Origin: a virus | Taxonomy: Duplodnaviria > Heunggongvirae > Uroviricota > Caudoviricetes | Strand: one strand, 5' to 3' | IMG/VR virus record: IMGVR_UViG_2579778652_000002 | Location: 1-17,145 of that record | Length of the DNA stretch: 17,145 bases | Shown: in pieces, positions 1 to 17,145 of the stretch | Layout of the letters: the number at the start of each line of letters is the position of its first letter | Position numbering within the stretch: position 1 is the first letter of the stretch | The notes under the pieces: model-generated | Told to the model about the DNA's origin: nothing | Databases searched by the model: none | What the model saw: the letters and a program-made list of their open reading frames with translations, nothing else | Made by a program: the position numbers and the translations under genes

Positions 1-452
1 TGCGCAACATCAGACCATTTGGTGATTGGAGTATTGGGGCTACCAAGTGACAACGCACCGTTATTCATCATGAAGTGAGCAAGCTCTGTTTCAAGGTCGG
101 TAACGATTCGCTGGCGAACCGGCGCGAGAATTTCCTCCAGTTGGTTAAGCTTGATCGCTTCCTCCAGTTGCTGATATTCAACAGCAACAGTGATGTAGTT
201 ACCTACACGCCCCGTAGCTTTACCTGAGATCAGGTTGTTTTTATTTTGCCCTGAAATATCACCAGTGGGAGTACGGAGGGATGAGAATTGATGCGGACGT
301 TTAAAGCTAACGCTATCGCCAGTGCTGGAGTTGATTTCACCTGCCAGCAACTGACGGTCTACGGTTTTCGCCAGAACTAAATCTGACATAAAACCAGGAA
401 GGAATTTTTTCAGAACGATTTGACTGACGTTACTGTCGAGATTGTTAGGCAT
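1..452 (-). CDS. Major capsid (coat) protein, 5' portion only; gene continues beyond window start
   Basis: Minus-strand ATG at 452..450 preceded by AAGGAA RBS; open frame runs off the window edge. Translation begins MPNNLDSNVSQIVLKKFLPGF. Lies immediately downstream of the scaffold gene in the P22/Sf6 head-gene order. Not in the ORF track because it is truncated. Confidence 0.75.
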   Translation of the reverse strand, partial: MPNNLDSNVSQIVLKKFLPGFMSDLVLAKTVDRQLLAGEINSSTGDSVSFKRPHQFSSLRTPTGDISGQNKNNLISGKATGRVGNYITVAVEYQQLEEAIKLNQLEEILAPVRQRIVTDLETELAHFMMNNGALSLGSPNTPITKWSDVA

Positions 453-463
453 TTATCTTTTCC

Positions 464-1348
464 TTATTCGATTTTTGCGCCGGGGCATAATTTGTTGAAT
501 TCGTCTTGTTTCGCATCAGCACCGCCACCACGTACTTCCGGCTCTGGCTTGATGGCTTTCTTTGGTTTTGGAGCAAGGCTTACCTGTTTGCTAATCTGCC
601 CCAAGAGGAATGCTGCGCGAATTGGATCTGTCTCAGCGGCTACACGCTGGCGTAATTGCTGGCTCTTACCTAAGCCATAGGCGAGTAGTTCAGAGCCTTC
701 GTCTGCACAGTGAATGATGATTTCCTGCTGAATTGGTGGTAGCTCACTAAGAACAATGGCCTCCATTTCCTGATAATCTTTCACAGGAAGTTTGGCTGCC
801 CGTTGTTTATGCGCTTCTACCCTTTGCTGGAAACGCTGTTGGTATTCCTGTTGCTGACGTAGTTTTTGTTGCTGCTGCTGTTCGACACGGCCTTTTTTCT
901 CATGCCAATCAGTCAATGCCTGTTCAAACGCCTGTTCGTCATAATCACACGACTCAAGAGTCGGTTTTGGTGGAATAGCGTCTGGTTGTGGTTGCTGATG
1001 TTCCGCAGGCTTGGCTAATGCTTCCTCAAGCTGGCGGCGCAACTCACGGTTTTCTTTCTGTGTTTCTTTGAAGCCTTTGCGAAGATCTTTCACCCATTGC
1101 GGTGCAGGTTGCCCGTCAATGTGATCATCATCGTCAGCGTTAAGCTGAATTTCTTCATCACCAATACGCAAGGCGTAATCTTCTGGTGTCTCTTCGGTTT
1201 TTTCAGGATCAGTTGCCATCTCTTTTCCGTTGTCATCCTGGCTTTCATTCTCAGGCTGTGACTCTGTTTGGATGATGGTTTCTTCTGCATTTTCCTGTGT
1301 TTCAGACAGGTCAATAACCTGACCGTCGATGATCAGTTCGTTTTCCAT
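464..1348 (-). CDS. Scaffolding protein
   Basis: 294-aa acidic, Q/E/K-rich, helical-looking protein between portal and coat; AGGAG RBS upstream of ATG at 1348; size and position match P22-like scaffold. Confidence 0.75.
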   Translation of the reverse strand: MENELIIDGQVIDLSETQENAEETIIQTESQPENESQDDNGKEMATDPEKTEETPEDYALRIGDEEIQLNADDDDHIDGQPAPQWVKDLRKGFKETQKENRELRRQLEEALAKPAEHQQPQPDAIPPKPTLESCDYDEQAFEQALTDWHEKKGRVEQQQQQKLRQQQEYQQRFQQRVEAHKQRAAKLPVKDYQEMEAIVLSELPPIQQEIIIHCADEGSELLAYGLGKSQQLRQRVAAETDPIRAAFLLGQISKQVSLAPKPKKAIKPEPEVRGGGADAKQDEFNKLCPGAKIE

Positions 1349-1361
1349 TGATTACTCCTGG

Positions 1362-3488: not shown

Positions 3489-3490
3489 GT

Positions 3491-4903
3491 TTACCAACCG
3501 GAGGATGAGGGAACGTATATTTCAGTTTCTTCGCGGACCAATGCCGGGCAATGCATACACATCATCAGCGCATCAGCCAGGTTAGGAGATGGAATACCGA
3601 GCTTCTGCTTCATTTCGACCTTAGTCATTAGCTCCAGCTTCCCGTTGTTATTGAATTTGCGCTGAATCTGCGTCAGTTCTGCAAACAGCTTCTCCAGCAT
3701 CTTCTCGCCTATCGCTTCTTTGTCGAAACTCAGCATGTCGTCTGGGTCTGCATACTCACCGTAAACAACCGCCCGATATGTCAGATACAGCCTGTCAGCC
3801 AGCGCGTAATAGAATTGCGCTCGCTTATTGCGGAACACATCACCAATAGTGCGAACGTTGTCGCCCTGTACGACTTCATCAGCCCATGCTCCGGCCTGAT
3901 ACGGCGCATCTTCATCGAATGGCGATTCACTGCCCTTGAACATCGTGGCGGTGATTTTCTTGCCGGAGAACGCTTCCGTTGTCTGTCTGCGTAGGCCCGC
4001 ACCGACGCCATCACCATCCCACAGGTAATGGTCAGCGCCGTCTTCAATCGCCAGCGAAGTAGCCCAGTCAGCACCCTCGTTGATGTCCATCAGCAGACCT
4101 TCGGCAATGCGCTTAACTACCGAACCGTGACGCGATGCGTAACCTTTAGCATCCGGTCCTGTATCTGACGGGTCATGCGCAGAGACAACCGCACCTTTCG
4201 CTTTCCATCCGAGTTTCTTGTGCGCATCGGTTGCAGCTTCAAGCCATTCACGTTTGATGATTGCCATATCACTTGCGCTCACTGGCTCACCAAGCCAGAT
4301 GTGACGATACAGTGTCGGATTTCTGCGTTTACACTCTTCCATCTCCAGACGGAGAACTTCAGGAAAATGCGGGTTGTCGGTGTAGTTCACCGTCAGCAGG
4401 CAAATATCATCAGGAGGATTTACGACGAACCGCTGATAGGTATCGTCGAGGATGTTTTTCGGGTTGAAGCTCACCCATATTTCGGAAAACGGCTTGCGGA
4501 TGGTTGGTATCAGGATGTCCCATGATTCCTTCGTTACCGCTTCCGCTTCTTCCACCCAGCAAATATCAATACCTTCGAGCGATTTAATCTTCGTCGGGTT
4601 GTTTTTTATGCCGTAGAACATGAATTCAGCATTCGTTCCGAGATGACGAATCATTGAACGTTGAATTTCAAACTCAGCCGAATACCCTTCCCGCTCGATG
4701 GTGTCTTCAAGCAACCGGATTACCGAATCACTGATACTGTTTTGCAGCTCGCGAGCGCAGAGAATACGCACCGGCTGCCGACGCGCCGCTTCAACAAGCA
4801 GCCTCGCAATTGCCCATGATTTACCGCTACCTCGACCGCCTTTGGCGACTTTGTAGCGATGCGCCTCAATGAACGGTTCAAAGATAGGATTAATCGAGGT
4901 CAT
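3491..4903 (-). CDS. Terminase large subunit (ATPase/nuclease)
   Basis: 470 aa; Walker A GGRGSGKS near N-terminus; start overlaps small terminase stop (ATGA); directly upstream of portal. Confidence 0.9.
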   Translation of the reverse strand: MTSINPIFEPFIEAHRYKVAKGGRGSGKSWAIARLLVEAARRQPVRILCARELQNSISDSVIRLLEDTIEREGYSAEFEIQRSMIRHLGTNAEFMFYGIKNNPTKIKSLEGIDICWVEEAEAVTKESWDILIPTIRKPFSEIWVSFNPKNILDDTYQRFVVNPPDDICLLTVNYTDNPHFPEVLRLEMEECKRRNPTLYRHIWLGEPVSASDMAIIKREWLEAATDAHKKLGWKAKGAVVSAHDPSDTGPDAKGYASRHGSVVKRIAEGLLMDINEGADWATSLAIEDGADHYLWDGDGVGAGLRRQTTEAFSGKKITATMFKGSESPFDEDAPYQAGAWADEVVQGDNVRTIGDVFRNKRAQFYYALADRLYLTYRAVVYGEYADPDDMLSFDKEAIGEKMLEKLFAELTQIQRKFNNNGKLELMTKVEMKQKLGIPSPNLADALMMCMHCPALVREETEIYVPSSSGW

Positions 4904-5340
4904 TTTCCGAATAGAGTGCTCATCGGTGATGTTTCAATCTGGATTGCGCCGCCGTCTTTACCTGTTAACTCGTGATCAACCTTGTCGCGCCATTTATCCT
5001 TCTGTCGGTTCTTAAGCCAGAAGATGGCAGCTGTTGTATCAGGCGGGTAATACTTCTCAAGCGGAGTTTCGACAATTCTGTTTTCAATAACACGAATATC
5101 GATGTCTGGAGCCACAAAGCCCATAGCGCGTTGATAAAGACGGTCACTAACTTCTGCATCAGCGACGGCCTTACCCTTTTTTATGGACTCCGAAAACTTA
5201 GGATAATCAAGCTTCCACTTGTTAATAGTTGACTCACTGACTTCAAAGAAATCAGCAAGTTCTGCATCGGTGTAGCCCAGCAAGCACAGTTTGCGTGCCT
5301 GTTCGGCATACGCCTCTTGATACTTTGTTGGGCGCGCCAT
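4900..5340 (-). CDS. Terminase small subunit
   Basis: 146 aa with N-terminal HTH-like segment (LGYTDAELADFFEVSESTINKW); immediately upstream of and overlapping the large terminase. Confidence 0.8.
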   Translation of the reverse strand: MARPTKYQEAYAEQARKLCLLGYTDAELADFFEVSESTINKWKLDYPKFSESIKKGKAVADAEVSDRLYQRAMGFVAPDIDIRVIENRIVETPLEKYYPPDTTAAIFWLKNRQKDKWRDKVDHELTGKDGGAIQIETSPMSTLFGK

Positions 5341-5342
5341 GT

Positions 5343-5585
5343 TTATGCTCCGGTAGTGAACAGGTCTAACGCTTCCTTCGATTTACGCACCGCTTCGATT
5401 GTGCGGGTCGTGATATCCGAATTAGCGCCGCCTGACTGGAAGTGAATTTTGAATAGCTCAAGCTTCAACTCGTCAGTACCAATGAACTGAAATGCTTCTT
5501 CTGCGGCTGCGTTCTGGTTCATGACCAGCTTGTAAATCTCTAACTGGAATTTCTGTTCTTCAGTCATGGGAATAATCTCTGCCAT
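5343..5585 (-). CDS. Hypothetical 80-aa acidic protein (P22 orf80-like position, directly upstream of small terminase)
   Basis: GGAG RBS 8 nt upstream of ATG at 5585; stop abuts small terminase start; no recognisable domain. Confidence 0.55.
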   Translation of the reverse strand: MAEIIPMTEEQKFQLEIYKLVMNQNAAAEEAFQFIGTDELKLELFKIHFQSGGANSDITTRTIEAVRKSKEALDLFTTGA

Positions 5586-5604
5586 TGTTGGCTCCGTTTA
5601 TCCG

Positions 5605-5635
5605 TTAAAAGGGATATCAGTTAAGTTATCCCGTG
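5605..5635 (-). terminator. Possible weak intrinsic terminator downstream of the KilA-N gene
   Basis: Inverted repeat GGGATA(5611-5616)/TATCCC(5627-5632) with 10-nt loop; on the minus strand it is followed by only a short T-run (CTTTTAA). Confidence 0.3.
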
Positions 5636-5841
5636 TAGGGTATAAGCCATTGTCGAGACCACTCATTGAATGGTCTCTGCAATAACCGATGTCTTTCCAT
5701 CAGTCCGCCACCACAAAGAATCTTTTTTGCCATAAGGCAGGAGGTTCATCTTTCAGTGGCTGCCAGTGTTATTTCCCCACTTACTGGCTTGGGTTGTTTC
5801 GCGGTACTGCCGTAATGCAAAAACTGGATTAACCTGCGAAA

Positions 5842-6372
5842 TCACACCATTCCGGGCAAATACATTTGCACTTCATTTGCCACTCTCTCACGTGCAAAAT
5901 GAAGCAATCTTTTTCGCCCACCAACGCCCCACTTAGCCATTTGGCTTGCGCACTGGCTTATCGCTTTGGTTTCAGTATTGATGATGTGATCGATTCTATT
6001 CAGACGGGACATTGCGCCAACGCCGAGACGGACAACCGTTTTGAAAACTTCATAAACTTCGATTTCAAATTCCGGCTTAATCCATGCTGCATATCTGATT
6101 GCCAGAAGTTCAACACCCCACACACCTGGTTCTGCACCACCTTTGATTATTTTAAGTGGTTGAATTTGTTCCAAAGTGCTTTTTTGCACTTTGGCCTCCA
6201 GTGCTTTTATGAAGCGTTTTATCTGCGCGCTACGCAAAAACTGGCTTGGGCGCTGTTGCTCTGTAGCCTCTCCATTTGCAACTGCTGCTGCATGGAGATC
6301 GTTTAAGTTGTAGCGTCCATCCTCATCAACACGAACGGACACACCATTGACAATAACTGTTGGGTACTTCAT
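5842..6372 (-). CDS. KilA-N domain protein
   Basis: 176 aa; N-terminus VIVNGVSVRVDEDGRYNLNDLHAAA ... LLAIRYAAWIKPEFEIEV fits the KilA-N pattern as I recall it. Flanked by about 255 bp and 345 bp of non-coding DNA. Confidence 0.7.
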   Translation of the reverse strand: MKYPTVIVNGVSVRVDEDGRYNLNDLHAAAVANGEATEQQRPSQFLRSAQIKRFIKALEAKVQKSTLEQIQPLKIIKGGAEPGVWGVELLAIRYAAWIKPEFEIEVYEVFKTVVRLGVGAMSRLNRIDHIINTETKAISQCASQMAKWGVGGRKRLLHFARERVANEVQMYLPGMV

Positions 6373-6488
6373 CAGTGATTACCTTTTAGTGATGAACCTT
6401 GTCACACAGGATTCCGGCCCACAGAAAGGCACCGATCACCAAACCGGCATCCTCAAGGGTCATCCTGAAAGGTTCTGTGTTCAGAAGT

Positions 6489-6512
6489 CGCGCGTGTGAA
6501 GCGCGTTTGTTG
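6489..6512 (+). terminator. Possible plus-strand hairpin terminator (weak)
   Basis: CGCGC-gtgtgaa-GCGCG followed by TTTGTTG; back-to-back with the minus-strand terminator at 6517-6542. Confidence 0.3.
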
Positions 6513-6516
6513 CAGA

Positions 6517-6542
6517 TATAAAAAAGCCCCGCGAATGCGAGG
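6517..6542 (-). terminator. Intrinsic terminator downstream of the lysis cassette
   Basis: On the minus strand: GCCUCGC-AUUC-GCGGGGC (7-bp stem with one G-U) followed by UUUUUUAU. Confidence 0.6.
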
Positions 6543-6717
6543 CTAAATCCTGGTATTTGTAATGACTGGCTCTTATCTCAACGCAGCCCCTTACCGCGCG
6601 CCAGATGCTCAATATCAAGCATCAGCAATGAGATGTTTAATCTGGATTCACTCCAGAAGTGATCACCACCCTGCCTACAGAGCCAGATGTGAAGGATGAT
6701 GAGTAAAATTATCGCTA

Positions 6718-7185
6718 TCATCGAAGGCATTGCGTCCTGATGTATTCCTGAAGCGTTCTCAGTGCTGTTTGGTCGCGGATAATTCCGTCCCGGACACCGA
6801 GAACGTTTCGTCCAGCAACTGGAGAGAGTTCGACGGTGGCATCATTGCCCATGCCGGAGGCGCCGGAGGTTTCGGCTGAGGATGGCACAGGGCATTTTCC
6901 TTTGACGAGCACCCTGCCACCATTATCAAGCTTGCGCCGAAGAGCATCATTTTTAGCTTTCGCATCAGCTAACTCCTTCGTGTATTTAGCATCGAGTGCA
7001 TCAGCAGAACGCTGGCGCTGCTGCATGTCAGTAATGGTGGCGGTCGCCTGCTTCAGCTCACTGACTTTTTTATCTCGCTGTTCTTTGTAGGCGATGGCGT
7101 TATCACGGTAATGATTAACAGCCCATGACAGGCAGACGATGATGCAGATAACCAGAGCGGAGATAATCGCGGTTAACCGACTCAT
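6718..7185 (-). CDS. Rz: Rz i-spanin
   Basis: Begins [31 protein letters not shown], closely resembling lambda Rz; N-terminal TM then coiled-coil region. Track ORF extends upstream to 7314, but the conserved Met at 7185 is the likely start. Confidence 0.85.
6759..6965 (-). CDS. Rz1: Rz1 o-spanin lipoprotein, embedded in the +1 frame of Rz
   Basis: [19 protein letters not shown] lipobox followed by a proline-rich segment ([11 protein letters not shown]), like lambda Rz1; entirely nested in Rz. Confidence 0.75.
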
Positions 7186-7273
7186 GACATCAACACCCCA
7201 ACGGCCAGAAACCACGGACACGCATCGTTGCCATTCAATGCGAGCAACGCTGCCATGAAAAAGCAAATCATGC

Positions 7274-7777
7274 TCATTGTTGCCCCCACAAACAGACTTC
7301 ACGCTCAATCTCACGACGGGTCATCAGCCCTTTCCATTGCTTACCGCCAGCGTATGTCCAGCGCCGTAGCTGATCACATGCGCCCTTGATATCGCCCTGG
7401 TTTATTTTGCGAAGAAGCGTCGATGTTCTGAAATTGCCTGTGCCCACGTTATAGACGAACGAGTAAAGAGCGCCGCGCGTTGTTTCCGGTATATCGACTT
7501 TGATGTACGGGTTAATTTGTCTGGCGACCGTGGCAAGGTCTTTATTCAGGAGGGCTTTGCATTCTGCTTCGGTATACGTTTTACCGAGCATGATGTCTTT
7601 TCCGGTGTGTCCGTGGCATACAGTCCATACACCAACAATATCTTTGTATGGTATGTAGCTGACACCTTCCAGACCATCGTTACCACTTGGTCCAGTGATT
7701 AACACAGATGCTATAGCAATAGCCCCACCACTTATCGCCGCTATTACGCTATTTCGTAGTGCCGGTGACATTGCCAT
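7274..7777 (-). CDS. SAR endolysin (T4-lysozyme family, P21 R-like)
   Basis: N-terminal Gly/Ala-rich weakly hydrophobic SAR segment ([19 protein letters not shown]) then an E...D...T lysozyme motif ([19 protein letters not shown]); overlaps the holin 3' end. Confidence 0.85.
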
Positions 7778-7952
7778 TCAATCTGTCCTCGCGCTCTTTG
7801 CGCTTGTAGTACCAGTTGATGCCAAATGTGCCGACAGTACAAAGAATACCAATGATGACAGCCCAGTCATTCAGGGAGAGAATGCCACCCATCGCAGTCA
7901 GTCCTCCGAAGCTGTAACTGAACCATTCTCTTATTTTGTCCATACGGTACAT
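7749..7952 (-). CDS. Class II holin (pinholin-type) with dual-start motif
   Basis: 67 aa with two predicted TM segments and a charged C-terminus; starts MYRMDK (two Mets separated by Arg, resembling the lambda S antiholin/holin dual start); paired with a SAR endolysin. Confidence 0.7.
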
Positions 7953-8350
7953 GCTCTACCCCTTCATTGAGGGGATTTGCTCTATTTAATTAGGAATAAG
8001 GTCGATTACTGATAGAACAAATCCAGGCTACTGTGTTTAGTAATCAGATTTGTTCGTGACCGATATGCACGGGCAAAACGGCAGGAGGTTGTTAGCGCGA
8101 CCTCCTGCCACCCGCTTTCACGAAGATCATGTGTAGAAGGCCGCAGCGTAACTATCACTGATGAATTCAGGATAGCCAGTGGCTACGGCTCAGTTTAGGT
8201 TGTGCTGTTGCTGGGCGGCGATGACGCCTGTACGCATTTGGTGATCCGGTTCTGCTTCCGGCATTCGCTTAATTCAGCACAACGATAAGAGCACTCGGTG
8301 CATTTAAGCCAAGCCCCATAAGGGAGAATGCTCTTACCTGTTGCACAGAT

Positions 8351-8410
8351 ATAAAAAATCCCGAAACCGTTATGCAGGCTCTAACTATTACCTGCGAACT
8401 GTTTCGGGAT
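8351..8410 (-). terminator. tR' late terminator (lambda-like)
   Basis: Minus-strand AUCCCGAAAC...GUUUCGGGAU hairpin followed by UUUUUUAU, matching the lambda tR' sequence as I recall it. Confidence 0.8.
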
Positions 8411-8545
8411 TGCATTTTGCAGACCTCTCAGCCTGCGATGGTTGGAGTTCCAGACGATACGTCGAAGTGACCAACTAGGCGGAATCGGTAGTAAGCGCCG
8501 CCTCTTTTTATCTCACTACCACAACGAGCGAATTAACCCATCGTT
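8353..8545 (-). ncRNA. Short late leader transcript from pR' to tR' (lambda 6S RNA analogue)
   Basis: About 193 nt between the predicted pR' start site and the tR' T-run, equal to the roughly 194-nt lambda 6S transcript; sequence is near-identical to lambda from memory. Confidence 0.6.
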
Positions 8546-8580
8546 GGGTCAAATTTACCCAACTTTATTCAAAAAGTCAA
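8540..8580 (-). promoter_or_regulatory. Late promoter pR' with qut (Q-utilisation) region
   Basis: Minus strand: -35 TTGACT (8580..8575), 17-bp spacer, -10 TAAATT (8557..8552), directly downstream of Q; matches lambda pR'. Confidence 0.8.
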
Positions 8581-8622
8581 TATCATGCCGTTAATATGTT
8601 GCCATCCGTGGCAATCATGCTG

Positions 8623-9246
8623 CTAACGTGTGACCGCATTCAAGATATTGTCTGCGATTGACTCTTCCTTGTGGCATTGCACCACCAGAGCGTCATACAG
8701 CGGCTTAACAGTGCGTGACCAGGTGGGTTGAGTAAGGTTTGGGATTAGCATCGTTACAGCGCGATATGCGGCGCTTGCTGGCATCCTTGAATAGCCGACG
8801 CCTTTGCATCTTCCGCACTCTTTCTCGACAACTCTCCCCCACCGTTCTGTTTTGGCTATATCAACCGCACGGCCTGTACCGTGGCAATCTCTGCATCTTG
8901 CTCCCGGCGTCGCAGCACTACGGCAATAATCCGCATAAGCGAATGTTGCGAGCACTTGCAGTACCTTTGCCTTAGTATTTCCTTCAAGTTTTGCCACACC
9001 ACGGTATTTCCCCGATACCTTGTGTGCAAATTGCATCAGATAGTTGATAGCCTTTTGTTTGTCGTTCTGGCTGAGTTCATGCTTACCACAGAATGCAGCC
9101 ATTCCGAATCCGGCTTGTGATTGCGCCATCCCCATAGCAGCCATCACATCAGTACCGGAAAGAGAGTCAGAAGCCGTGGCCCGTGGTGAGTCGCTCATCA
9201 TCGGGCTTTTTGGCGAATGAAATTTAGCTACGCTTTCGAGTCTCAT
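8623..9246 (-). CDS. Q: Late-gene antiterminator Q (lambda type)
   Basis: 207 aa starting MRLESVAKFHSPKSPMMSDSPRATASD with a Cys-rich zinc motif (CRDCHGTG...CGRCKG); essentially the lambda Q sequence as recalled. Confidence 0.9.
   Translation of the reverse strand: MRLESVAKFHSPKSPMMSDSPRATASDSLSGTDVMAAMGMAQSQAGFGMAAFCGKHELSQNDKQKAINYLMQFAHKVSGKYRGVAKLEGNTKAKVLQVLATFAYADYCRSAATPGARCRDCHGTGRAVDIAKTERWGRVVEKECGRCKGVGYSRMPASAAYRAVTMLIPNLTQPTWSRTVKPLYDALVVQCHKEESIADNILNAVTR
8946..8985 (+). promoter_or_regulatory. paQ-like CII-dependent antisense promoter inside Q
   Basis: TTGC-N6-TTGC (8946-8959) followed 13 nt later by -10 TAGTAT (8973-8978), antisense to Q, as in lambda paQ. Confidence 0.55.
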
Positions 9247-9431
9247 CGTCTTCCCCTCTTGCCCTGTTTGACCATCAGGACGCCGTTAACTATTACATGA
9301 CGCTCGCCTTTGCTGTCTCGGTTGTACTTGAGCACTGTTCCTCTTGCGCAGGAAAGCATCCTTGCCACTTCGGTCTGATTGCCTCGTGTCTGGATAAGAA
9401 GCTCTGGTATCGTTTGAATTGTGGCGTTCAT
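9243..9431 (-). CDS. ninH: NinH-like small DNA-binding protein
   Basis: 62 aa; NQTEVARMLSCARGTVLKY HTH resembling lambda NinH; ATGA overlap with Q start. Confidence 0.7.
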   Translation of the reverse strand: MNATIQTIPELLIQTRGNQTEVARMLSCARGTVLKYNRDSKGERHVIVNGVLMVKQGKRGRR

Positions 9432-9790
9432 GCGTTCTCCAGTTCGGTGATTTTTATTCCAAGCCTTCCGCCTGGTACTTTCACGCCACGAATTACGCGA
9501 ATGTCATCGAATTGCTCGTCGTCTTCCGCAAATCCGGCGTGGATAAGGGAGTCGAGTAAACCTTTCAGGATGTTGTCGAGGTCGCGGCGGCGGGAGTCTG
9601 GAACGTCTGCGATGACTTTGATACGGAGTCGTGATTTGGTGAAAATGTCTAACTTGAGTTGGCGGATGATTTGCTGAACGTCTTTTCGGTATTTCTGGCC
9701 TTTATCGCTGATGTAGTATTGGCTTCCCCGTCTTCGCCAGTAGGTATTCACCGACGGCGGGTAAGGAAGCACAAACTGATATTCGTTCAT
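9428..9790 (-). CDS. rusA: RusA-family Holliday junction resolvase
   Basis: 120 aa; LPYPPSVNTYW ... DVPDSRRRDLDNILKGLLD ... GGRLGIKITEL, matching RusA hallmarks. Confidence 0.85.
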   Translation of the reverse strand: MNEYQFVLPYPPSVNTYWRRRGSQYYISDKGQKYRKDVQQIIRQLKLDIFTKSRLRIKVIADVPDSRRRDLDNILKGLLDSLIHAGFAEDDEQFDDIRVIRGVKVPGGRLGIKITELENA

Positions 9791-10077
9791 GGCTTAATCT
9801 TCCCCTCCTTCAGCAGTATCGCCTGCGTCCTGATCACGCCTTCGAGGTGGTAAAGTCTGGCGTCTTTGTTGTCGAGATTATGGGTGCGTCGGTCGATTTC
9901 ATCGTGACACGCGCTACAAGCCCATGCGCCGATCAGGTCGTCAGGCTTCATTCCCGTTCCGCAAATTCCAGCCATCCGGTAATGTGCCAGAACTGTAGTT
10001 TCAGGATTGCCATTGCATACGCCGTAAATACGTACCTGACATTCTCTGCCGCGTGCTTCTTTGCGTAGATTGGCCAT
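9787..10077 (-). CDS. YbcO-like (DUF1364) nin-region protein, putative zinc-binding nuclease
   Basis: 96 aa; MANLRKEARGRECQVRIYGVCNGNPETTVLAH ... CSACHDEIDRR, resembling DLP12 YbcO. Confidence 0.7.
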   Translation of the reverse strand: MANLRKEARGRECQVRIYGVCNGNPETTVLAHYRMAGICGTGMKPDDLIGAWACSACHDEIDRRTHNLDNKDARLYHLEGVIRTQAILLKEGKIKP

Positions 10078-10802
10078 TAAGCAGCCTCCCCTGTTACTTT
10101 CAGCATTCCGTTATCGAGCAGCTTTCTGGTCAGCCACTGTTGGCCACGCCCGGTGATTTTTGTGGTGAACGATATCTGTATTCCGTGATTTGTATTGACC
10201 GCTGTTTCTTTCACTGTGAAATAGCCGCGATCCATATATTCCTGCATTGGCACATTGCGCCGGGAACCTGAAGCAATAAGGATTTTGTGATCGCGCATCC
10301 ACGCAAACAGTTTGTTTGGACCAATTCCAACAACCTTTGCAAAGTTTCCAATCAAAATTCCGCTGGCCTCGCCAACGCGATCGGCAAACTCAACTTTAGG
10401 TGCGGCAATTGCGAGCTGGTTTTCCAGTTGCATTTTCTGCTCAGCAAGATCAGCAGCAAGGCGCAACGCTTCTGGTAGCGTTTTGGGGATATTAACCGCA
10501 GCTTCTTCAAGCTCTCGCCAACGGTCAACAAGACGAGCGGTGAATTCCGGCGACAACTGAGCGACGACAATAATGCTGTCGCGCTTACCTTGTTCGCCTT
10601 CGAAGACGTAGAAATAACGCTTCCCGGTAATAACACCTAAATCATTGATTATGTTAGTGTGCTGCAATGCAGGAGGCTTGATAACGCCACGTTTCACCAA
10701 TCTATCTATGGATACTTTTACATTGCTATGGCGGCTTTCTACCAACTCAGCGATTTCAATGCTTGTCATTTTGATGGCATTGCCATTTATTAACTCACTC
10801 AT
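10077..10802 (-). CDS. Rha-domain / ANT (KilA-C) antirepressor-like protein
   Basis: 241 aa; N-terminal Rha-like segment (TSIEIAELVESRHSNVKVSIDRL) and C-terminal ANT-like segment (FAKVVGIGPNKLFAWMRDHKIL ... MQEYMDRGYF). Confidence 0.75.
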   Translation of the reverse strand: MSELINGNAIKMTSIEIAELVESRHSNVKVSIDRLVKRGVIKPPALQHTNIINDLGVITGKRYFYVFEGEQGKRDSIIVVAQLSPEFTARLVDRWRELEEAAVNIPKTLPEALRLAADLAEQKMQLENQLAIAAPKVEFADRVGEASGILIGNFAKVVGIGPNKLFAWMRDHKILIASGSRRNVPMQEYMDRGYFTVKETAVNTNHGIQISFTTKITGRGQQWLTRKLLDNGMLKVTGEAA

Positions 10803-10965
10803 CGTCTTCTTCCTCGTACATTGAGCTATTCGGATCGCTCATCAGTTCTGCGCAGCAATCGGAGCACACGTGAACTTCCAGAAAATGCAGCTTTTGACCG
10901 CAGTTAGCGCACGTTAAAGCCCGCTCGACGCTTTCTTGTTCGTAACTTCGATTTGGGTCAATCAC
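10795..10965 (-). CDS. ninF: NinF-like small Cys-rich protein (GTG start; absent from ORF track)
   Basis: Hand translation gives (M)[55 protein letters not shown], close to lambda NinF; GTGA overlap with NinE stop; its stop overlaps the Rha/ANT start. Confidence 0.6.
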
Positions 10966-11144
10966 CTTGTTTTCCTCGCACGTTCTCTAAGCCACCGGAT
11001 ATCCCACAGGTGAGCCGTGTAGTTGAAGGTTTTTACGTCAGATTCTTTTGGGATTGGCTTGGGTTTATTTCTGGTGCGTTTCGTTGGAAGGTATTTGCAG
11101 TTTTCGCAGATGATGTCGGTGAAACTTCGTCGCTGTCGTCTCAT
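10962..11144 (-). CDS. ninE: NinE
   Basis: 60 aa from internal Met [23 protein letters not shown]..., near-identical to lambda NinE; ATGA overlap with the methyltransferase stop. Track ORF extends further upstream. Confidence 0.8.
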
Positions 11145-11668
11145 GCCGCCCTCCTGACGCCCTGCCCGATCGCCATCAATGCCGCTTTGGATACGGTAGT
11201 AAACATCCGTCGAGGACTGATGAACGGTCGCCAAATCAGCAGCATGGAGCCTTTGCTGTTTCCCTTCTTCTCCAGCCCTGTCGATGGTTCGATAAAATTA
11301 ATCCGTCCATCAGTGATAATGCGAACTTCGTCGACACTCTCCAGAGCCTTGCTGAACCATCCGACTGACATATCCTCTGGCACAAGCATAACTACCGTCT
11401 GTCGCTGTTGTATGCACTGCTCAGTGGCTTTTTCCACCCACGGCCTGATATTGCTGTACGGTGGGTTATTCCAGATTGCACCGTGGCTTATCCACTCAGA
11501 ATTGAGCGCGTCGTCGGCCTCAGTTAGCCAGTGAGCGCACAGAGCATTTTTGTCGCTCGCTGCCGAATCCAGCCAGAATCCAAACTCAATATCCAGTGCA
11601 TCAAAAAGCCAAAGCGGTGTTTGCCAGCAGTCCTTGTCGTGTGCTGGCGTATTTGATTTGATAGTCAT
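11141..11668 (-). CDS. Phage Dam-family DNA N6-adenine methyltransferase
   Basis: About 175 aa from Met at 11668; [24 protein letters not shown] and NPPY motif; ATGA overlaps with NinB upstream and NinE downstream. Confidence 0.8.
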
Positions 11669-12111
11669 GCAGCCTTCCCTTTTCGTTGTGACCATTCATA
11701 CTCTCGCCGGGAGTCATCACTCCACCGCACGTTGCGCTCTGAGCCGAACCAAAACATGATTTCGATAAGCTCAGTCATGCTGGCCTTTCGCATTTTGCTG
11801 GTACGCACGCCAAGCATGACAACGCCACCGTCGATACCAGGCACACTTCGTTGCTCCAGTTTTTTGGTCTTAAGCCACAGGGCAGTAAACAGGTCTTTCC
11901 AGTCCTCCGGCGCAAGTCTCTGTCCATGCCAAAGCACCTGACGTGATACGTCCTGCAATAACGCCCACATAAGGCGGTTTTGAGGATTGCTCCGCTTGGG
12001 TTCTTTAATGTGGACTTCGTGAGGTGACTTGTCGTCGATCGGAAGTGAGAGTATTGCGTCTATGGCGTTATTTCTGATTGCTTCGTTGCGAAGCATGTAT
12101 ATTTGCTTCAT
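11665..12111 (-). CDS. ninB: NinB (Orf-family recombination mediator)
   Basis: 148 aa; NPQNRLMWALLQDVSRQVLWHG ... RWSDDSRREYEW, similar to lambda NinB; GAGG RBS. Confidence 0.8.
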   Translation of the reverse strand: MKQIYMLRNEAIRNNAIDAILSLPIDDKSPHEVHIKEPKRSNPQNRLMWALLQDVSRQVLWHGQRLAPEDWKDLFTALWLKTKKLEQRSVPGIDGGVVMLGVRTSKMRKASMTELIEIMFWFGSERNVRWSDDSRREYEWSQRKGKAA

Positions 12112-12133
12112 TGTTACCTCGACTTAATTCTGC

Positions 12134-12475
12134 TCATTGATACCCCCTCTCACTTAATCGCCTCCACGCTTCGTTAAACTCTTCTCGGGTTGCGCCGGAT
12201 TTTCTTTCTTCAAACATCATGCATTCGCTGATGTCTCCCCATGACTTTGGTCGCTTTTCAGCGAACAGATCATCCCATTCGAATACCCAACGGCCTGATT
12301 TTCGGTAGTGGTAAATGGTCAGCCATGTTGTGCTGTTCGCTGGATACCCATAGAGAACTTCGACTTTTTGATCACGGTCTTTATGCTTTTTCAGCAGGAT
12401 AAAGCCAGCAACCAGCGAAGCTCCGGCAAGAATGATGATTGGAATTTGCCAGTCAGCCACACTTCCCTCTCCCAC
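12134..12475 (-). CDS. Hypothetical single-pass membrane protein (nin region, ren position)
   Basis: GTG start at 12475, or GTG at 12460 with GAGGGAAG RBS; N-terminal TM (WQIPIIILAGASLVAGFILL) then about 80 aa soluble region; no recognisable domain. Confidence 0.5.
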   Translation of the reverse strand: MGEGSVADWQIPIIILAGASLVAGFILLKKHKDRDQKVEVLYGYPANSTTWLTIYHYRKSGRWVFEWDDLFAEKRPKSWGDISECMMFEERKSGATREEFNEAWRRLSERGYQ

Positions 12476-12508
12476 AAATAAAAAGGCCTGCGATTACCAG
12501 CAGGCCTG
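12476..12508 (-). terminator. Intrinsic terminator after the helicase gene (tR2 analogue)
   Basis: Minus strand: AGGCCUGC-uggtaatc-GCAGGCCU (8-bp stem) followed by UUUUUAUUU; located where lambda has tR2 between replication genes and nin. Confidence 0.7.
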
Positions 12509-12532
12509 TTACAAGCTCAGTGATGTAGATGG

Positions 12533-13909
12533 TCATACGTCAGCCCCTTGTGCATATCGTCTGCCACGCGCAGCAGGTGCATTTGATGCTGTGCAAATCT
12601 GTCTGGCTTCATCCTGGTCACATGCAACAAAGTGTCCGTTACAGAACCGCTGGTAAACCGTACCAAGTGAGCCAAAACGGTTTTTCGTCACGATGATTTC
12701 AGCAAATGGCGCAGCGCTACTGTTCTCGTCATATACCGCTTCCCGATAGAGCATGATGATTGAGTCTGCGTCCTGCTCAATGCTTCCTGAATCACGCAAA
12801 TCTGCGTTTGTCGGGCGTTTGTTTGGTCGCTTCTCAACATCGCGCGAAAGCTGACTCAGGGAGATAACCGGTGTTTTCAGGTCTTTCGCCATCGCCTTCA
12901 GGCTTCCGGAGATGTGAGCAATTGCGAGGTCGTTGCGGTCTGCTTTCGGCTTCTCAATCAGGCCAAGATAATCCGCCATGATGAGTGAGAGGTTTGGATT
13001 TTCCTGTTTGTGCCGTTCTGCGATTGAGCGTATTTCTTCGACCGATAACCGCGAGGCATCGACTACCCATACATCCAAATCTGCAAGCTGACTCATGCCG
13101 TTAGCAACACGTGCCCAGCCCTCGTCATCCATCGATGCAGGATTTCGCAGTACGCTAACCGACATCCTCCCGGCGTTGGCAATGCTTCGCTCTGCAATCT
13201 GCAATGCGCTCATTTCCATTGAGAAAATCAATACTCCGCGCCGGACGTCAGAACCAGGAATAACGCGGCTTGCAACGCCTTCGGCAATCTTCAGCGCCAG
13301 CTCGGTTTTCCCCATACCAGGACGAGCAGCGATTATCACCAGGTCTTCTGCGTTCATCCCTCCGGTGATGGCGTCAAGTTCTTCGATTCCGGTCTTCAGG
13401 GTATCGGACTCTTCTCCGTTCCTCAGACGCCTGTCAAGCGTGTCAGTGTAGTCGGTGATGATTTCCCCTAACCGTACAGGTTTAACCTCGTCACGGGGCT
13501 TTCTGATGGCTGAAAGACGCTTTACAAGTTCATCCATCGCCTGACTCGATGCGTCGATGGTTCCGCTCTGAATTGGTTCACGCATTTCATCCATGATTTC
13601 CAGCACCAGACGGCGGTGATAGTTATCCGCAACCATTCCGGCATATCCCTTCAGGTTTGCGGCACTCGGGCAGTTTTTGCTGGTCATCAGGATTGACGTG
13701 AAATGCTCCTCTCCGCACGCCTCGGCAACCATCAGCGCGTCGATTAGGTTTCTGTTTCGCGCCTGCTTGCGGATAACCTCGAAGGCTTTCCGGTAGAGCG
13801 GAATTGAAAACGCTTCCGGCTCCAGCGTTGCCAGAACGTCACTGGCGGTTGGTGTTAATCCACCAATCAGCAGGCCACCGATAACACTCGCTTCGATATC
13901 CTGTCTCAT
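12533..13909 (-). CDS. Replicative DnaB-type helicase (P22 gene 12-like)
   Basis: 458 aa; Walker [10 protein letters not shown], DnaB-like N-terminal domain; ATGA overlap with the upstream initiator gene. Confidence 0.85.
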
Positions 13910-14736
13910 GCAATCCCCCTGTCTGCAAACTTCCCTTCCCGAACTCCCGTTAACGAGTCTTCTCTCAGCAGGTAATCAAAATCAGCCGTCCAGCCCGTGT
14001 CGTTGTCTCCGAAGTAAAACGGCTTGGCCTGATGTACAAACGCCCTGACATACGCTCTGAAACCGTCCACGTTTGGCGTTTTCAGTTGCGGAATGATTTT
14101 CTTCAGGCGACGTTTGCGTTTCTCGTTGACCGCAACAGCGTGTGGCAGTCTGTCACCGACTTCGGTGTTGTAGGCGTTCAGGAAGGATTCATAGTCGATT
14201 CGTTCTGCCTTGCGACGTTCAGGTTTAACCTGCCCATCGCCGCCCCCGTTAGGGGGTAAGGGGGTATTTGTATTTATTGTCTTTTGTATATTGTCTTTTG
14301 TGTTTGACTGATTCGGTAAATTGCTTTTTACCGATTTGGTGAAGGTTTGTTTTACCGAATTGGTAAATGTTTTACCGAATCCGTTAACTTTCGTTTTCCA
14401 CTCGGAAATGTTTGTATTCATACCAACTTGACGCCCCACCTGAATGAGAACTCCCATTCTGATAAGCTCGTTTTTGGCGGTAGAGCATTTGGTTGGTGCC
14501 ATGCCAGTGAGTTCAGCGAACTGTTCGTTTCCGATCCAATCTATTTTTTTGTTGTAACCGTATGTCTTGCGCCACACAGCCATAACAATCAGTAACTGAT
14601 GTAGAGTAAGTCCAGAAAGCATGGCGGCTTCTAACAGTGTGTTTGCAGTCCGAGTGTATCCATCTTCGAGTTCTGCCACGCGATGCTCCACGACCTCCAG
14701 TTGAGGCCTGTAATCAGCTAACTTAACGACGCCCAT
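13906..14736 (-). CDS. Replication initiator (lambda O / P22 gene 18-like)
   Basis: 276 aa; CAGGAG RBS; contains iterons and an AT-rich stretch within the coding sequence (repeat TFT-x-SVK in the protein), as in lambda O. Confidence 0.8.
14262..14395. repeat. Putative ori: four TTTACCGAAT-type iterons plus adjacent AT-rich region inside the initiator gene
   Basis: Iteron copies at about 14311-14324 (inverted), 14328-14341, 14351-14367 (near-palindrome TTTACCGAATTGGTAAA) and 14371-14388; AT-rich 14262-14305 with tandem ATTGTCTTTTGT x2. Confidence 0.6.
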
Positions 14737-14884
14737 GTTTCACTCCTGCTTTGGCTAGTCTGTAAACACCAACAAGGCGCTCTGCGAACGCCCTGTTATT
14801 TGCTGCGGCTACCACTAATCCCTCAGGTGAATCAGGGTGTCGAATCTCTTCTTTTTCCTGGTATTTCTTACGACGTTTTGTCAT
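14723..14884 (-). CDS. Hypothetical small basic protein (53 aa) between cII and the initiator gene
   Basis: ATG at 14884 with AGGAG RBS 6 nt upstream; translation [53 protein letters not shown]; stop overlaps the initiator start. Below the ORF-track length cutoff. Confidence 0.45.
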   Translation of the reverse strand: MTKRRKKYQEKEEIRHPDSPEGLVVAAANNRAFAERLVGVYRLAKAGVKHGRR

Positions 14885-14892
14885 AATTACTC

Positions 14893-14955
14893 CTGTGGAT
14901 TGATCCAGTCTTTCTACATCAGGCCTCGAAGAATTCGCCGTTCTTCGGGGCTTTT
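14893..14955 (+). ncRNA. oop-like antisense RNA with strong terminator overlapping the cII 3' end
   Basis: Plus-strand hairpin GGCCUCGAAGAA-uucgccg-UUCUUCGGGGCU (14909-14939) followed by UUUUCUUUUG, antisense to the cII C-terminus, as for lambda oop; the 5' end and promoter are uncertain. Confidence 0.45.
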
Positions 14956-15200
14956 TCTTTTGTCAGGTAATCGGCAAGTCGCTTAGTCAGCTCAGCCATT
15001 TCATCGTCTTCGATTCCGTATTCCAGAACAGCCAGCATCATGCTTACCTGCGAGAAGAAACCATTCTTCCATCGGCTTACCTGATATTCAGGAACCCCCA
15101 TTGCTCGAGCGAATGTCTTCTGCCCCATCAGTGCCAGTTTGTTCAGCAAGGCTGACTCGATGCGAGCCGCTTTCTTGCTTTTAGTTGCAATAGTACCCAT
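14919..15200 (-). CDS. cII: CII-type transcriptional activator
   Basis: 93 aa; RIESALLNKLALMG ... QVSRWKNGFFSQVSMMLAVLEYGIEDDEMA, closely similar to lambda CII; AAGGAA RBS. Confidence 0.85.
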   Translation of the reverse strand: MGTIATKSKKAARIESALLNKLALMGQKTFARAMGVPEYQVSRWKNGFFSQVSMMLAVLEYGIEDDEMAELTKRLADYLTKEKAPKNGEFFEA

Positions 15201-15215
15201 AGATAATTTCCTTAA
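15175..15215 (+). promoter_or_regulatory. pRE-like CII-activated promoter
   Basis: TTGC-ttttag-TTGC (15175-15188) on the strand antisense to the cII 5' end, 13 nt, then -10 GATAAT (15202-15207), oriented toward cI. Confidence 0.6.
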
Positions 15216-15276
15216 TGATTAGATAGAGTTGGCTTCGCAAAGAAACGCAAAACCATAGAGATTTGTTTCTGGTAAT

Positions 15277-15308
15277 GCCCTTTTTCAGGGCGGGGATGTG
15301 TAAGAGCG
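15277..15308 (-). promoter_or_regulatory. nutR (boxA CGCTCTTAC plus boxB GCCCTGAAAAAGGGC)
   Basis: On the minus strand just downstream of cro: CGCTCTTACACATCCCCGCCCTGAAAAAGGGC, matching lambda nutR boxA/boxB. Confidence 0.8.
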
Positions 15309-15316
15309 TTAATAAC

Positions 15317-15547
15317 TTAAGCGGCCATTAATTCAGGCCAGATGCTTTCCCAATCAACCGGATGAAGGTCTTTGCGAGTCACTTCACCATTGCTGAACTT
15401 CTCAATCAGAACACAAAGTGCTGCGCCCAATTCATGATTACGGCTAAGTGCTTTCCTCAAATAGCCGATAGAAGTTCCGCACTTGGTGGCAAATTCTCTC
15501 TGCTCTTCCAGTGAAAGGGAGTTCAGATACAAGCGGAGTTCTTCCAT
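15317..15547 (-). CDS. cro: Cro-like HTH repressor
   Basis: 76 aa; HTH (FATKCGTSIGYLRKALS); GGAAGGAG RBS; divergent from cI across the operator region and upstream of nutR and cII. Confidence 0.65.
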   Translation of the reverse strand: MEELRLYLNSLSLEEQREFATKCGTSIGYLRKALSRNHELGAALCVLIEKFSNGEVTRKDLHPVDWESIWPELMAA

Positions 15548-15655
15548 TTGCTATCTCCTTCCCGTTGTTGAATAAGATGAGTTTACCTGTAGGTAAAAAG
15601 CAAATCAATACCCATAGGTTATTTACCGGCAGGTAATCAAAGATAGAATTAAATC
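15548..15655. promoter_or_regulatory. OR operator region with divergent pR (toward cro) and pRM (toward cI)
   Basis: Palindromic operators TTTACCTGTAGGTAAA (15583-15598) and TTTACCGGCAGGTAAT (15622-15637). pR on minus: -35 TTGATT (15608..15603), 17 bp, -10 TAAACT (15585..15580). pRM on plus: -10 TAGAAT (15644-15649) placing the start near the cI ATG (leaderless, as in lambda). Confidence 0.7.
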
Positions 15656-16342
15656 ATGGATAAATACGAACAAAGACGACTAAGGCTGATAGAGATAAGA
15701 GACCGATTCTGTAATGGAAAGGCCTCAGAGTTGGCTCGTCGAATAGAAAGGGAACCATCATACGTTTCCAGAATGCTGTATCCGGAAGGAAAAAGCGGAA
15801 AAAAACGCATTGCTGACGATATGATGGAACTAATTGAAAAATCTTTTAATCTCCCACGCGGATGGATGGACATGCTTGCAGATGGTAAAGCTGGAGCTAC
15901 GGACCATCTTGAGTTTGCGGGTAACGTTCGTGCGGGTTTTGTTCCGGTAATTGGTGAAGCCGTTTTGGGAGTTGATGGCTCAGTGGATATGATTGAATTC
16001 AGATCCGGTTGGTTAAGCATCTACAGCGGCGATAAAGATGCTTACGGTCTGAAGGTTAAGGGTGACAGCATGTGGCCAAGGATTCAGTCAGGAGAATATG
16101 TTGTTATTGAACCAAATACGCCAGTACATCCAGGTGATGAAGTCTTTGTAAGGACCAAAGACGGTCACAACATGATAAAGATCATGAACAAAACAAGAGA
16201 CGGTGATTATCAGTTTAGTAGCATAAACAGTGATCACCGCCCAATCACTCTTCCTGTTGAAGAAGTTGATAAAATGCATTTTGTTTCAGCTATTGTGAAA
16301 CACACCAGGTACGTAGACCAGGACGATCTGCCAAAAGTTTGA
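15656..16342 (+). CDS. cI: CI-type prophage repressor (HTH plus S24 LexA-like peptidase domain)
   Basis: 228 aa; N-terminal HTH (ASELARRIEREPSYVSRML); C-terminal S24 motifs (KVKGDSMWPRIQSGEYVVI, MIKIMNK); divergent from cro. Confidence 0.85.
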   Translation: MDKYEQRRLRLIEIRDRFCNGKASELARRIEREPSYVSRMLYPEGKSGKKRIADDMMELIEKSFNLPRGWMDMLADGKAGATDHLEFAGNVRAGFVPVIGEAVLGVDGSVDMIEFRSGWLSIYSGDKDAYGLKVKGDSMWPRIQSGEYVVIEPNTPVHPGDEVFVRTKDGHNMIKIMNKTRDGDYQFSSINSDHRPITLPVEEVDKMHFVSAIVKHTRYVDQDDLPKV

Positions 16343-16356
16343 GGATAAAGCAGCAA

Positions 16357-16653
16357 ATGTTTATACCCGGCATAGTAGTCGCTGTTGTAATCATCTGCTT
16401 CATATGGGCAAAGTTATCTCCTGTAAGCTCTAAGCATACAGCTGAACTCATGAGGAAGAAGAATCTTATACATGAGGCAGAATCGATAATTAAAAAGTTC
16501 AAAGGCATGTCATACGACGACATGTCATCAGAGCAGATTGCTATGTATAAATGCGCCATTGAGCGCCTTGACTACTTAAACGGACTCAAACCCAAACACA
16601 CCCCAGTAGAATCAAAATTGCCGCAATGGCCAAGCAATCCAAATAGCTTCTGA
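16357..16653 (+). CDS. Small membrane protein co-transcribed with cI (rexAB-position moron); function unknown
   Basis: ATG at 16357, 15 nt after the cI stop (track ORF begins at TTG 16339); N-terminal TM FIPGIVVAVVIICFIWA then about 75 aa soluble region; followed by an intrinsic terminator; no domain I recognise. Confidence 0.6.
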   Translation: MFIPGIVVAVVIICFIWAKLSPVSSKHTAELMRKKNLIHEAESIIKKFKGMSYDDMSSEQIAMYKCAIERLDYLNGLKPKHTPVESKLPQWPSNPNSF

Positions 16654-16664
16654 CATCTCCTTTC

Positions 16665-16688
16665 AGCCCGCAAAGCGGGCTTTTTTAT
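16665..16688 (+). terminator. Intrinsic terminator ending the cI operon
   Basis: AGCCCGC-aaa-GCGGGCU followed by UUUUUUAU. Confidence 0.8.
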
Positions 16689-16703
16689 ATCAATCCAAAA
16701 AAT

Positions 16704-16800
16704 TAATTACCTGAAAATTCAAGCAGGTAAACTCTCACATCAATTTTATTTACCTACAGGTATAGACATGGGTTTTACCTGTAGGTATATTTTAAGCCAT
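16704..16800 (+). promoter_or_regulatory. OL operators and pL promoter
   Basis: Operators TTTACCTACAGGTATA (16748-16763) and TTTACCTGTAGGTATA (16774-16789), plus an atypical TTACCTG-N10-CAGGTAA (16708-16731). pL: -35 TAGACA (16763-16768), 17 bp, -10 TATATT (16786-16791), start near 16799 (ATCAGCAGG, as in lambda). Confidence 0.7.
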
Positions 16801-16831
16801 CAGCAGGACGCACTGACCACCATGAAGGTGA

Positions 16832-16862
16832 GGCTCTTAAAAATTTAGCCCTGAAGAAGGGC
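16832..16862 (+). promoter_or_regulatory. nutL (boxA-like GGCTCTTA plus boxB GCCCTGAAGAAGGGC)
   Basis: boxB identical to lambda nutL boxB; boxA has G in place of the first consensus C. Confidence 0.75.
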
Positions 16863-17130
16863 AGCATTCAAAGCAGAAGGCTTTGGGGTGTGGTGAAGCC
16901 AGCTAGTCACTGGCAAGTGCTTACCTACTGTTGAGCGGTGAAGCGCTCCCAACGCTAGCAATAGCGTGGACGAGATGGGGAGCCGCGGGCGATAAGGCCG
17001 CCATAACGCGCACGTTGTCGCATGGAAAAATCACTGGGGTGCCGGTTATACCCCTCCGAATGAGACTCAACAAGCTGGAGCTAGACTACCAGCCACCACA
17101 CCACCAAAGCTAACTGACAGGAGAATCCAG

Positions 17131-17145
17131 ATGGATGCACAAACA
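17131..17145 (+). CDS. N: Antiterminator N, first 5 codons only (continues beyond window end)
   Basis: AGGAG RBS then ATGGATGCACAAACA (MDAQT), identical to the lambda N start as recalled. Confidence 0.7.

Follow-up and report, generated by a model that had tools for sequence, protein, structure and literature searches.

Genes expressed from prophages beside the maintenance repressor have a proven record of encoding anti-phage functions, and few single-gene membrane exclusion proteins are understood mechanistically. The slot between cI and N carries rexAB in lambda, stk in 933W, and bstA in BTP1. The question raised by the locus described here, from a 17,145-nt stretch of viral DNA (positions 1 to 17,145 of IMG/VR record IMGVR_UViG_2579778652_000002; hereafter, the window), is what the single small open reading frame (ORF) in this slot encodes, and whether it might serve in exclusion or defense as well. 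A first-pass annotation of the window had proposed a small membrane protein, co-transcribed with cI, that acts in superinfection exclusion or abortive infection.

Organization of the immunity region

The window is a temperate enterobacterial prophage with its gene order reversed relative to the usual lambda map. Its late genes are of the P22 type (P22_portal, E = 2e-178, plus a P22-type scaffold), and its immunity region is of the coliphage mEp043 type, with a cI protein 100% identical to that of mEp043 and 98.6% nucleotide identity across the ORF. The features of this region are the following:

14919-15200, minus strand: cII
15317-15547, minus strand: cro
15584-15635: OR, with three TACC-N4-GGTA operator sites (15584, 15609, and 15624) in the cro-cI interval
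15622-15649, plus strand: pRM-like promoter TTTACC-16-TAGAAT (a consensus match only), ending 6 nt 5' of the cI ATG
15656-16342, plus strand: cI repressor, 228 aa, S24 LexA-like (PF00717, E = 1.4e-17; phrog_4)
16341-16345, plus strand: GAGGA, a motif resembling a Shine-Dalgarno sequence, which lies 11 nt 5' of the ORF start and overlaps the stop codon of cI
16357-16653 (stop codon included), plus strand: gene for a predicted 98-aa bitopic membrane protein of the PHROG 10450 family
16665-16690, plus strand: intrinsic terminator ending the cI-ORF transcript, the equivalent of lambda tImm
16707-16791, plus strand: OL operators and pL-like promoter TAGACA-17-TATATT (promoter at 16763-16791)
17132: start of the N gene, after a structured N leader

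Operators of the form TACCNNNNGGTA are found at 16751 and 16776 in OL and three times in OR; that is, five of the eight matches in the window (2.5 expected) fall within OR/OL. A hairpin, GCCCTGAAGAAGGGC, at 16848-16862, in a nutL-like box 3' of OL/pL, is presumably boxB. From its position, the promoter at 15622-15649 would act as pRM, and we infer that the ORF is transcribed from it.

The ORF starts 14 nt behind cI (not 15 nt, as the first-pass annotation had it, because cI ends at 16342), and a scan of this gap, which holds the GAGGA motif, revealed no promoter-like or terminator-like site; in two diverged relatives (loci L005 and L008, below) the gap is only 3-4 nt. The one promoter-like match upstream of the ORF lies inside cI (15965-15993), and such matches occur at the level expected by chance (four found vs. 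3.4 expected). The terminator, described earlier as strong and placed just before OL/pL, is indeed so: it has a 7-bp stem with six G-C pairs (16665-16681) followed by a T-run (dG -12.6 kcal/mol), its sequence is identical across six E. coli alleles, and L005 has a terminator of other sequence at the equivalent place. The ORF thus shows the layout by which the immunity-operon class is defined, being on the cI strand, with a terminator downstream before OL and no terminator or promoter intervening, and the proposed operon arrangement with cI holds up in the scan. In the model that we favor, the ORF would close the cI (pRM-type) immunity transcript as its last cistron and, because of this placement, its product should be made continuously in the lysogen. 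The AT-richness that had been noted for the ORF is evident relative to the late genes (41.4% GC vs. 47.9% for the portal gene and 48.4% for the window) but not relative to cI (43.2%).

A conserved gene in a family of its own

Several lines of evidence point to the ATG at 16357 as the real start, giving a protein of 98 aa as originally called. The N-termini of the homologues all read M/V-[YFW]-I-[PS] and align with 16357; GAGGA is kept before the ORF in the six E. coli alleles, and in L008 it lies 8 nt before a GTG start; and TAAGGAG is found 6-8 nt 5' of the aligned start in the homologues that occupy the sieA position (below). The start codon at the position of 16357 is GTG in mEp043 and in strain PA45B. 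The 104-aa form from the TTG at 16339, which is used in the mEp043 GenBank record and had also been suggested for the window, is unlikely, and we reject it on the basis of these N-termini and ribosome-binding sites.

The profile searches called for at the outset returned a full-length match to PHROG 10450 (E = 3.7e-54; residues 1-98 on positions 1-98 of 98), a profile also matched over its full length by all 20 family members tested (E down to 1.8e-54). PHROG 10450 is without an assigned function and, therefore, membership gives no mechanism. A word-seeded search of 5.8 billion proteins returned only copies at least 94% identical to the ORF product; an exhaustive HMMER search of 1.84 billion representatives returned eight true relatives (33-43% identity; E = 6e-18 to 2e-6), and a profile search widened the family to about 26 clusters at 90% identity. 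Where the source names an organism, the clusters derive from Escherichia, Salmonella, Citrobacter, or the Enterobacter cloacae complex, and "hypothetical" is the annotation of all named records. The family alignment has six invariant and eleven near-invariant columns (the set comprising H27, K34, LIxEA, S52, M56, Q60, C66-A67, R70-L71, L74, K78, and W91-P92), with C66, A67, L71, W91, and P92 among the invariant residues.

No characterized family accounts for the protein. Searches of the ORF and its relatives against Pfam and NCBIfam gave nothing or only scattered sub-threshold matches (e.g., FtsL in one member), and PADLOC-DB 2.0 gave no family at E<=1 for four family members; together with the uninformative PDB and fold searches described below, this agrees with the initial description of a small membrane protein free of recognizable domains. 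Searches of the literature library found no functional work on the gene, which is already deposited as a hypothetical protein and clustered in PHROGs. By these comparisons, the ORF falls outside every characterized exclusion or defense family tested, and the most fitting description is a new family of proteins in a known kind of locus.

It could be argued that the ORF is a spurious, functionless reading frame or, alternatively, the small membrane toxin of a toxin-antitoxin (addiction) module, given that it is small with a hydrophobic N-terminus, is left uncalled by PGAP in most genomes, and contains one antisense promoter-like match. We consider this highly improbable. Between the two E. coli allele groups the ORF shows dN/dS of 0.12-0.24 (cI, about 0.10), which indicates purifying selection, its motifs are conserved across homologues of 33-43% identity, and its ribosome-binding sites are conserved as well. 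Further, promoter-like matches are no more frequent than expected by chance, no antitoxin candidate is present, and an unopposed toxin could not be expressed constitutively along with cI. The homologues and the dN/dS values below 0.25 argue, beyond chance, that the ORF is a real gene.

As for its annotation, PGAP fails to call the gene at window positions 16357-16653 in most of the complete E. coli genomes in which it is present, and a non-cI feature is annotated at the ORF in only two of the 40 records listed. The paralogue in the sieA position is a "hypothetical protein" in all 25 listed records of its 57 carrier genomes.

Predicted membrane topology and fold

The single N-terminal transmembrane helix followed by a soluble part that had been read from the sequence was recovered by hydropathy and by structure prediction. 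The helix spans residues 2-20 (Kyte-Doolittle mean 2.5), and family members (97-114 aa) have one hydrophobic segment. In all 19 full-length members this segment begins at residue 1-3; K/R are absent ahead of it and number one to six in the 15 residues that follow. By the well-established positive-inside rule, which serves here as a rule of thumb, this pattern predicts that the protein is oriented N-out, C-in and lacks a signal-peptide n-region, which would put its conserved domain of ~75 residues in the cytoplasm. Given the family alignment, AlphaFold2 (pLDDT 81) predicts a long helix at 5-47, comprising the membrane span and helix 1, a second helix at 58-76 that packs back as a hairpin, and a moderately confident tail that bears the WP motif. 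Fold searches matched only generic helical hairpins, and a sequence profile search of the PDB matched only designed helical filaments (E>0.6). That is, the product is predicted to be a bitopic inner-membrane protein with residues ~2-20 in the membrane and the N-terminus outside, and a cytoplasmic domain that would consist of a two-helix hairpin (LIxEA ... SWxxM ... YxCAIERLxxL) and a conserved tail (KxNHxP...L..WP).

This architecture bears on the second function that had been envisaged, namely abortive infection, in which the protein would sit idle in the membrane until it senses a phage and then oligomerize and depolarize or permeabilize the membrane, as proposed for RexB. A membrane anchor joined to a helical hairpin could oligomerize, the slot is the one that lambda uses for rexAB, and the ORF evolves fast (below). 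However, the one transmembrane helix is very hydrophobic and free of polar pore-lining residues, the cI context offers no partner sensor gene, and no RexA, RexB, or holin family was recognized, since no Pfam family matched at E<=1. Hence, we regard an abortive-infection effector as distinctly unlikely.

Linkage to cI and divergence within the immunity module

The ORF and the cI type of the window are each found in 52 of the 5,426 complete E. coli genomes, always at a single site, and the two co-occur in every case (52/52). In the six alleles inspected, the ORF is directly behind cI and is the sole gene between cI and OL, and two deeply diverged versions of the module (L005 and L008, the protein cluster of the latter including Enterobacter cloacae complex records) keep the same gene order. 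Because of this co-occurrence and the presence of the ORF in three deeply diverged versions, it is an old, fixed part of the mEp043-type immunity module rather than a moron acquired recently. As to whether the slot is variable, the ORF is fixed behind its own cI type, and other immunity types carry other cargo. For instance, phage mEp506, with a cI of the H-19B type (50% identical to that of the window), has hicABC in its cI-to-N slot, in agreement with the proposal that this slot hosts unrelated accessory or defense cargo. In mEp506 (L020, 3581-4711), which represents the nearest different cI type, hicA/hicB/hicC form a toxin-antitoxin-chaperone set, and the same slot of H-19B (L019) holds about 2 kb of unannotated DNA.

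The three versions of the module have conserved operators and share 84-88% identity in cI and 88-92% in cro, compared to only 43-49% in the ORF. Synonymous sites are saturated across the three versions. Nonsynonymous divergence follows the same pattern as identity (dN of 0.48-0.61 for the ORF vs. 0.09-0.10 for cI and 0.07-0.10 for cro), and the ORF protein thus evolves about five times faster than its neighbors. Such evolution resembles that of an arms race; weak constraint on a protein that is small and helical, rather than conflict, could also be behind it. The cI+ORF module is carried by the siphovirus mEp043 (lambda-type), by P22-type prophages (the window and E. coli GF43), and by the contractile-tailed prophage MB19.

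Relatives in the sieA position of P22-like phages

The family occupies a second slot. A tblastn search found a relative at 37% identity in the P22-like coliphage N7, and in N7 and five metagenomic or genomic loci (L006, L007, and L010-12) the homologue is convergent to the ejection-protein gene 16, at exactly the site that sieA, annotated together with a promoter of its own, takes up in the P22 record. Both N7 and L006 have the homologue as the final gene of a tightly packed operon headed by the Arc-family repressor gene mnt. The copies in L007 and L010-12 follow other genes and have a long intergenic region upstream; no repressor gene is with them, and they adjoin a tailspike or P63C gene. 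Neither SieA nor its motif was found in any family-bearing locus of this type. The N7-type allele is present in 57 of the 5,426 complete E. coli genomes. Each subfamily has long been resident in its slot, because the two are ~35% identical to each other vs. 43-98% within each. GF43, a P22-like prophage with a cI-linked copy, has no second family copy in its sieA slot. We regard as firmly supported that the ORF is a real, conserved gene for a membrane-anchored accessory protein, and that members of the family follow a maintenance repressor, as the last cistron, in two regulatory regions unrelated to each other, immC (cI) and immI (mnt, or replacing sieA).

The association with repressors could instead mean that the protein has a non-defense role, as a factor of lysogeny or host physiology. 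Tethered to the membrane, it might modulate prophage maintenance or induction (through, e.g., FtsH/HflKC, RecA access, or repressor stability), or it might have a lysogenic-conversion function of other benefit to the host. Consistent with such a role, the gene is attached to a maintenance-repressor operon in both contexts (cI here; mnt in N7 and L006) and is never separated from its cI type, and regulators of the cytoplasm or inner membrane could be contacted by the domain that is predicted to be cytoplasmic. We consider it unlikely all the same, since the copies in L007 and L010-12 have no repressor gene and lie beside a tailspike or P63C gene, a core regulatory partner should evolve about as fast as cI rather than some five times faster, and the ORF is absent from most lambdoid immunity regions (e.g., the H-19B type).

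A few additional observations concern this second slot. In the GF43 prophage, a near relative of the window, the gene 16-mnt interval (L018, 10815-11057) contains IS903B and several small genes, one of them annotated as a Rap1a/Tai family immunity protein, and neither sieA nor the PHROG 10450 family. In the mnt operons of N7 (L004, 3008-3848) and L006 (2196-2886), the homologue is preceded by a zinc-ribbon-like ORF (CxxC...CxxC) and a transmembrane/coiled-coil ORF; the two ORF pairs resemble each other in architecture, with hardly any sequence similarity, and with the homologue they may form a three-gene set. Three to four inverted copies of ATGCTTGCAT / ATGCAAGCAT, operator-like, lie upstream of the homologue in L010 (~1625-1790), and also in L011 and L012.

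Comparison with known exclusion and defense systems

SieA resides in the inner membrane and prevents DNA from passing across it; its most strongly conserved motif faces the cytoplasm, and just 22 of 66 sequenced P22-like phages encode the protein (PMC10883804). Like SieA, the PHROG 10450 product would be prophage-expressed and lie in the inner membrane, and its predicted domain would be on the side where the conserved motif of SieA lies; one of its subfamilies also takes the sieA position, flanked by gene 16 and mnt/gene 9. The copy in the window is not between genes 16 and 9; it is behind cI, in the cI operon rather than immI. Nor is there a sequence relationship between the two: hhalign gave a probability of 1% (E = 0.056, over 25 hydrophobic columns only), on which we reject homology to SieA (P22 types A-C), and the SieA motif FxRYPxEAxxFNK (PMC10883804) was found only in P22 and is absent from the family-bearing loci, the window, and the family alignment. 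SieA is also larger (164-200 aa with several helices) than the ORF product (~100 aa with one transmembrane helix).

HK97 gp15, a moron-encoded, YebO-like protein, is another system that shares features with the ORF, i.e., a minimal N-terminal stretch followed by a single transmembrane helix, a helical C-terminal part with positive charge, and expression from the prophage as a single gene; it is reportedly an exclusion protein. It differs in length (62 vs. 98 aa) and in location, among tail genes with its own promoter and terminator. Homology was rejected in this case as well, with none detectable by hhalign (probability 0.5%), and the ORF gave no Pfam match through which a YebO-type family could be recognized.

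The likeness to lambda RexA/RexB, 933W Stk, HicABC, and BTP1 BstA is one of position, behind cI on the maintenance transcript with a terminator before OL. Lambda, however, has a two-gene system, with rexA encoding a sensor and rexB a four-helix membrane protein, whereas the window has a single ORF with one transmembrane helix. More generally, the ORF differs from this other cargo in being a single gene of 98 aa that is tied to one cI type and does not behave as a mobile insert, and searches of Pfam, NCBIfam, and PADLOC recognized none of the RexA, RexB, kinase, HicA/B, and BstA families in the ORF.

Discussion

The relatives in the P22 sieA position strengthen the idea of exclusion. Together with this positional replacement, the fast divergence within an otherwise conserved module, the independence from virion type, and the retention of the gene in a decayed prophage are the reasons to read the ORF as a lysogen-expressed inner-membrane factor of exclusion or defense that acts at the inner face, a function suggested by position and to which we would give an even chance. 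Under this hypothesis, the lysogen would be protected from incoming phages by action at the cytoplasmic face of the inner membrane, possibly through interference with genome entry or with a membrane host factor needed for entry, and the outcome would be superinfection exclusion of the SieA or HK97 gp15 kind rather than cell killing. The predicted cytoplasmic domain fits a block at the inner face better than a periplasmic mask of a receptor. It is important to note, nonetheless, that the sipho-, podo-, and myo-type carriers have no obvious entry machinery in common, that such slots hold non-defense cargo too, and that the hot-spot position is circumstantial evidence.

A more specific form of the exclusion hypothesis, which we hold tentatively and slightly short of even chances, is that PHROG 10450 may represent a new one-gene superinfection-exclusion system of ~100 residues, non-homologous to but interchangeable with SieA in P22-like phages and hard-wired to one cI type, that blocks genome entry from the cytoplasmic face via its helical hairpin and whose divergence tracks the entry proteins of competitors. 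Should phage exclusion prove true, the ORF would add a new protein family to the known exclusion factors and possibly another way to block DNA entry; should there be no exclusion, the ORF would point to an unrecognized function of lysogeny that is tied to repressor operons.

A small membrane ORF behind cI would not surprise a specialist. The finding of the family in two slots makes this candidate unusually well motivated and easily testable. The family is tiny and confined to enterobacterial temperate phages, its homologue replaces sieA in some P22-like phages, and its cI+ORF module travels on lambda-like, P22-like, and contractile-tailed prophages. Each slot is occupied in about 1% of complete E. 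coli genomes, and in RefSeq the cI-linked form is unannotated in most of its carriers. As a 300-bp gene, available on the K-12 phage mEp043 and amenable to the established SieA assays, the ORF offers a cheap experimental entry point.

Finally, a few minor observations can be added. The decayed P22-like remnant mentioned above (L009, 3521-7721) has a truncated gp20 homologue and is missing gene 16, and its family member is intact and adjoins type VI secretion genes (Hcp and Tlde1-domain). The mEp043-type immunity module (window 1-5340 and 15300-17145; L017; L022) is found on three virion types as judged by their genes, i.e., a P22-type head (window), a lambda-type tail (mEp043), and a contractile tail (MB19), which amounts to mosaicism of the immunity module; strain MB19, a 100%-identical match, was rejected as a relative of the whole prophage since only the immunity region is common to both. 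The N leader (16880-17115, plus strand) gave nothing above threshold in Rfam and tRNA scans and is predicted to form a large closed fold (MFE -101 kcal/mol, z = -4.06), which is probably the RNase III-type N-leader hairpin known from lambda. Its closing stem is 17 bp long, and the two arms, GGCUUUGGGGUGUGGUG / CACCACACCACCAAAGC, are found again in L005 and L008.
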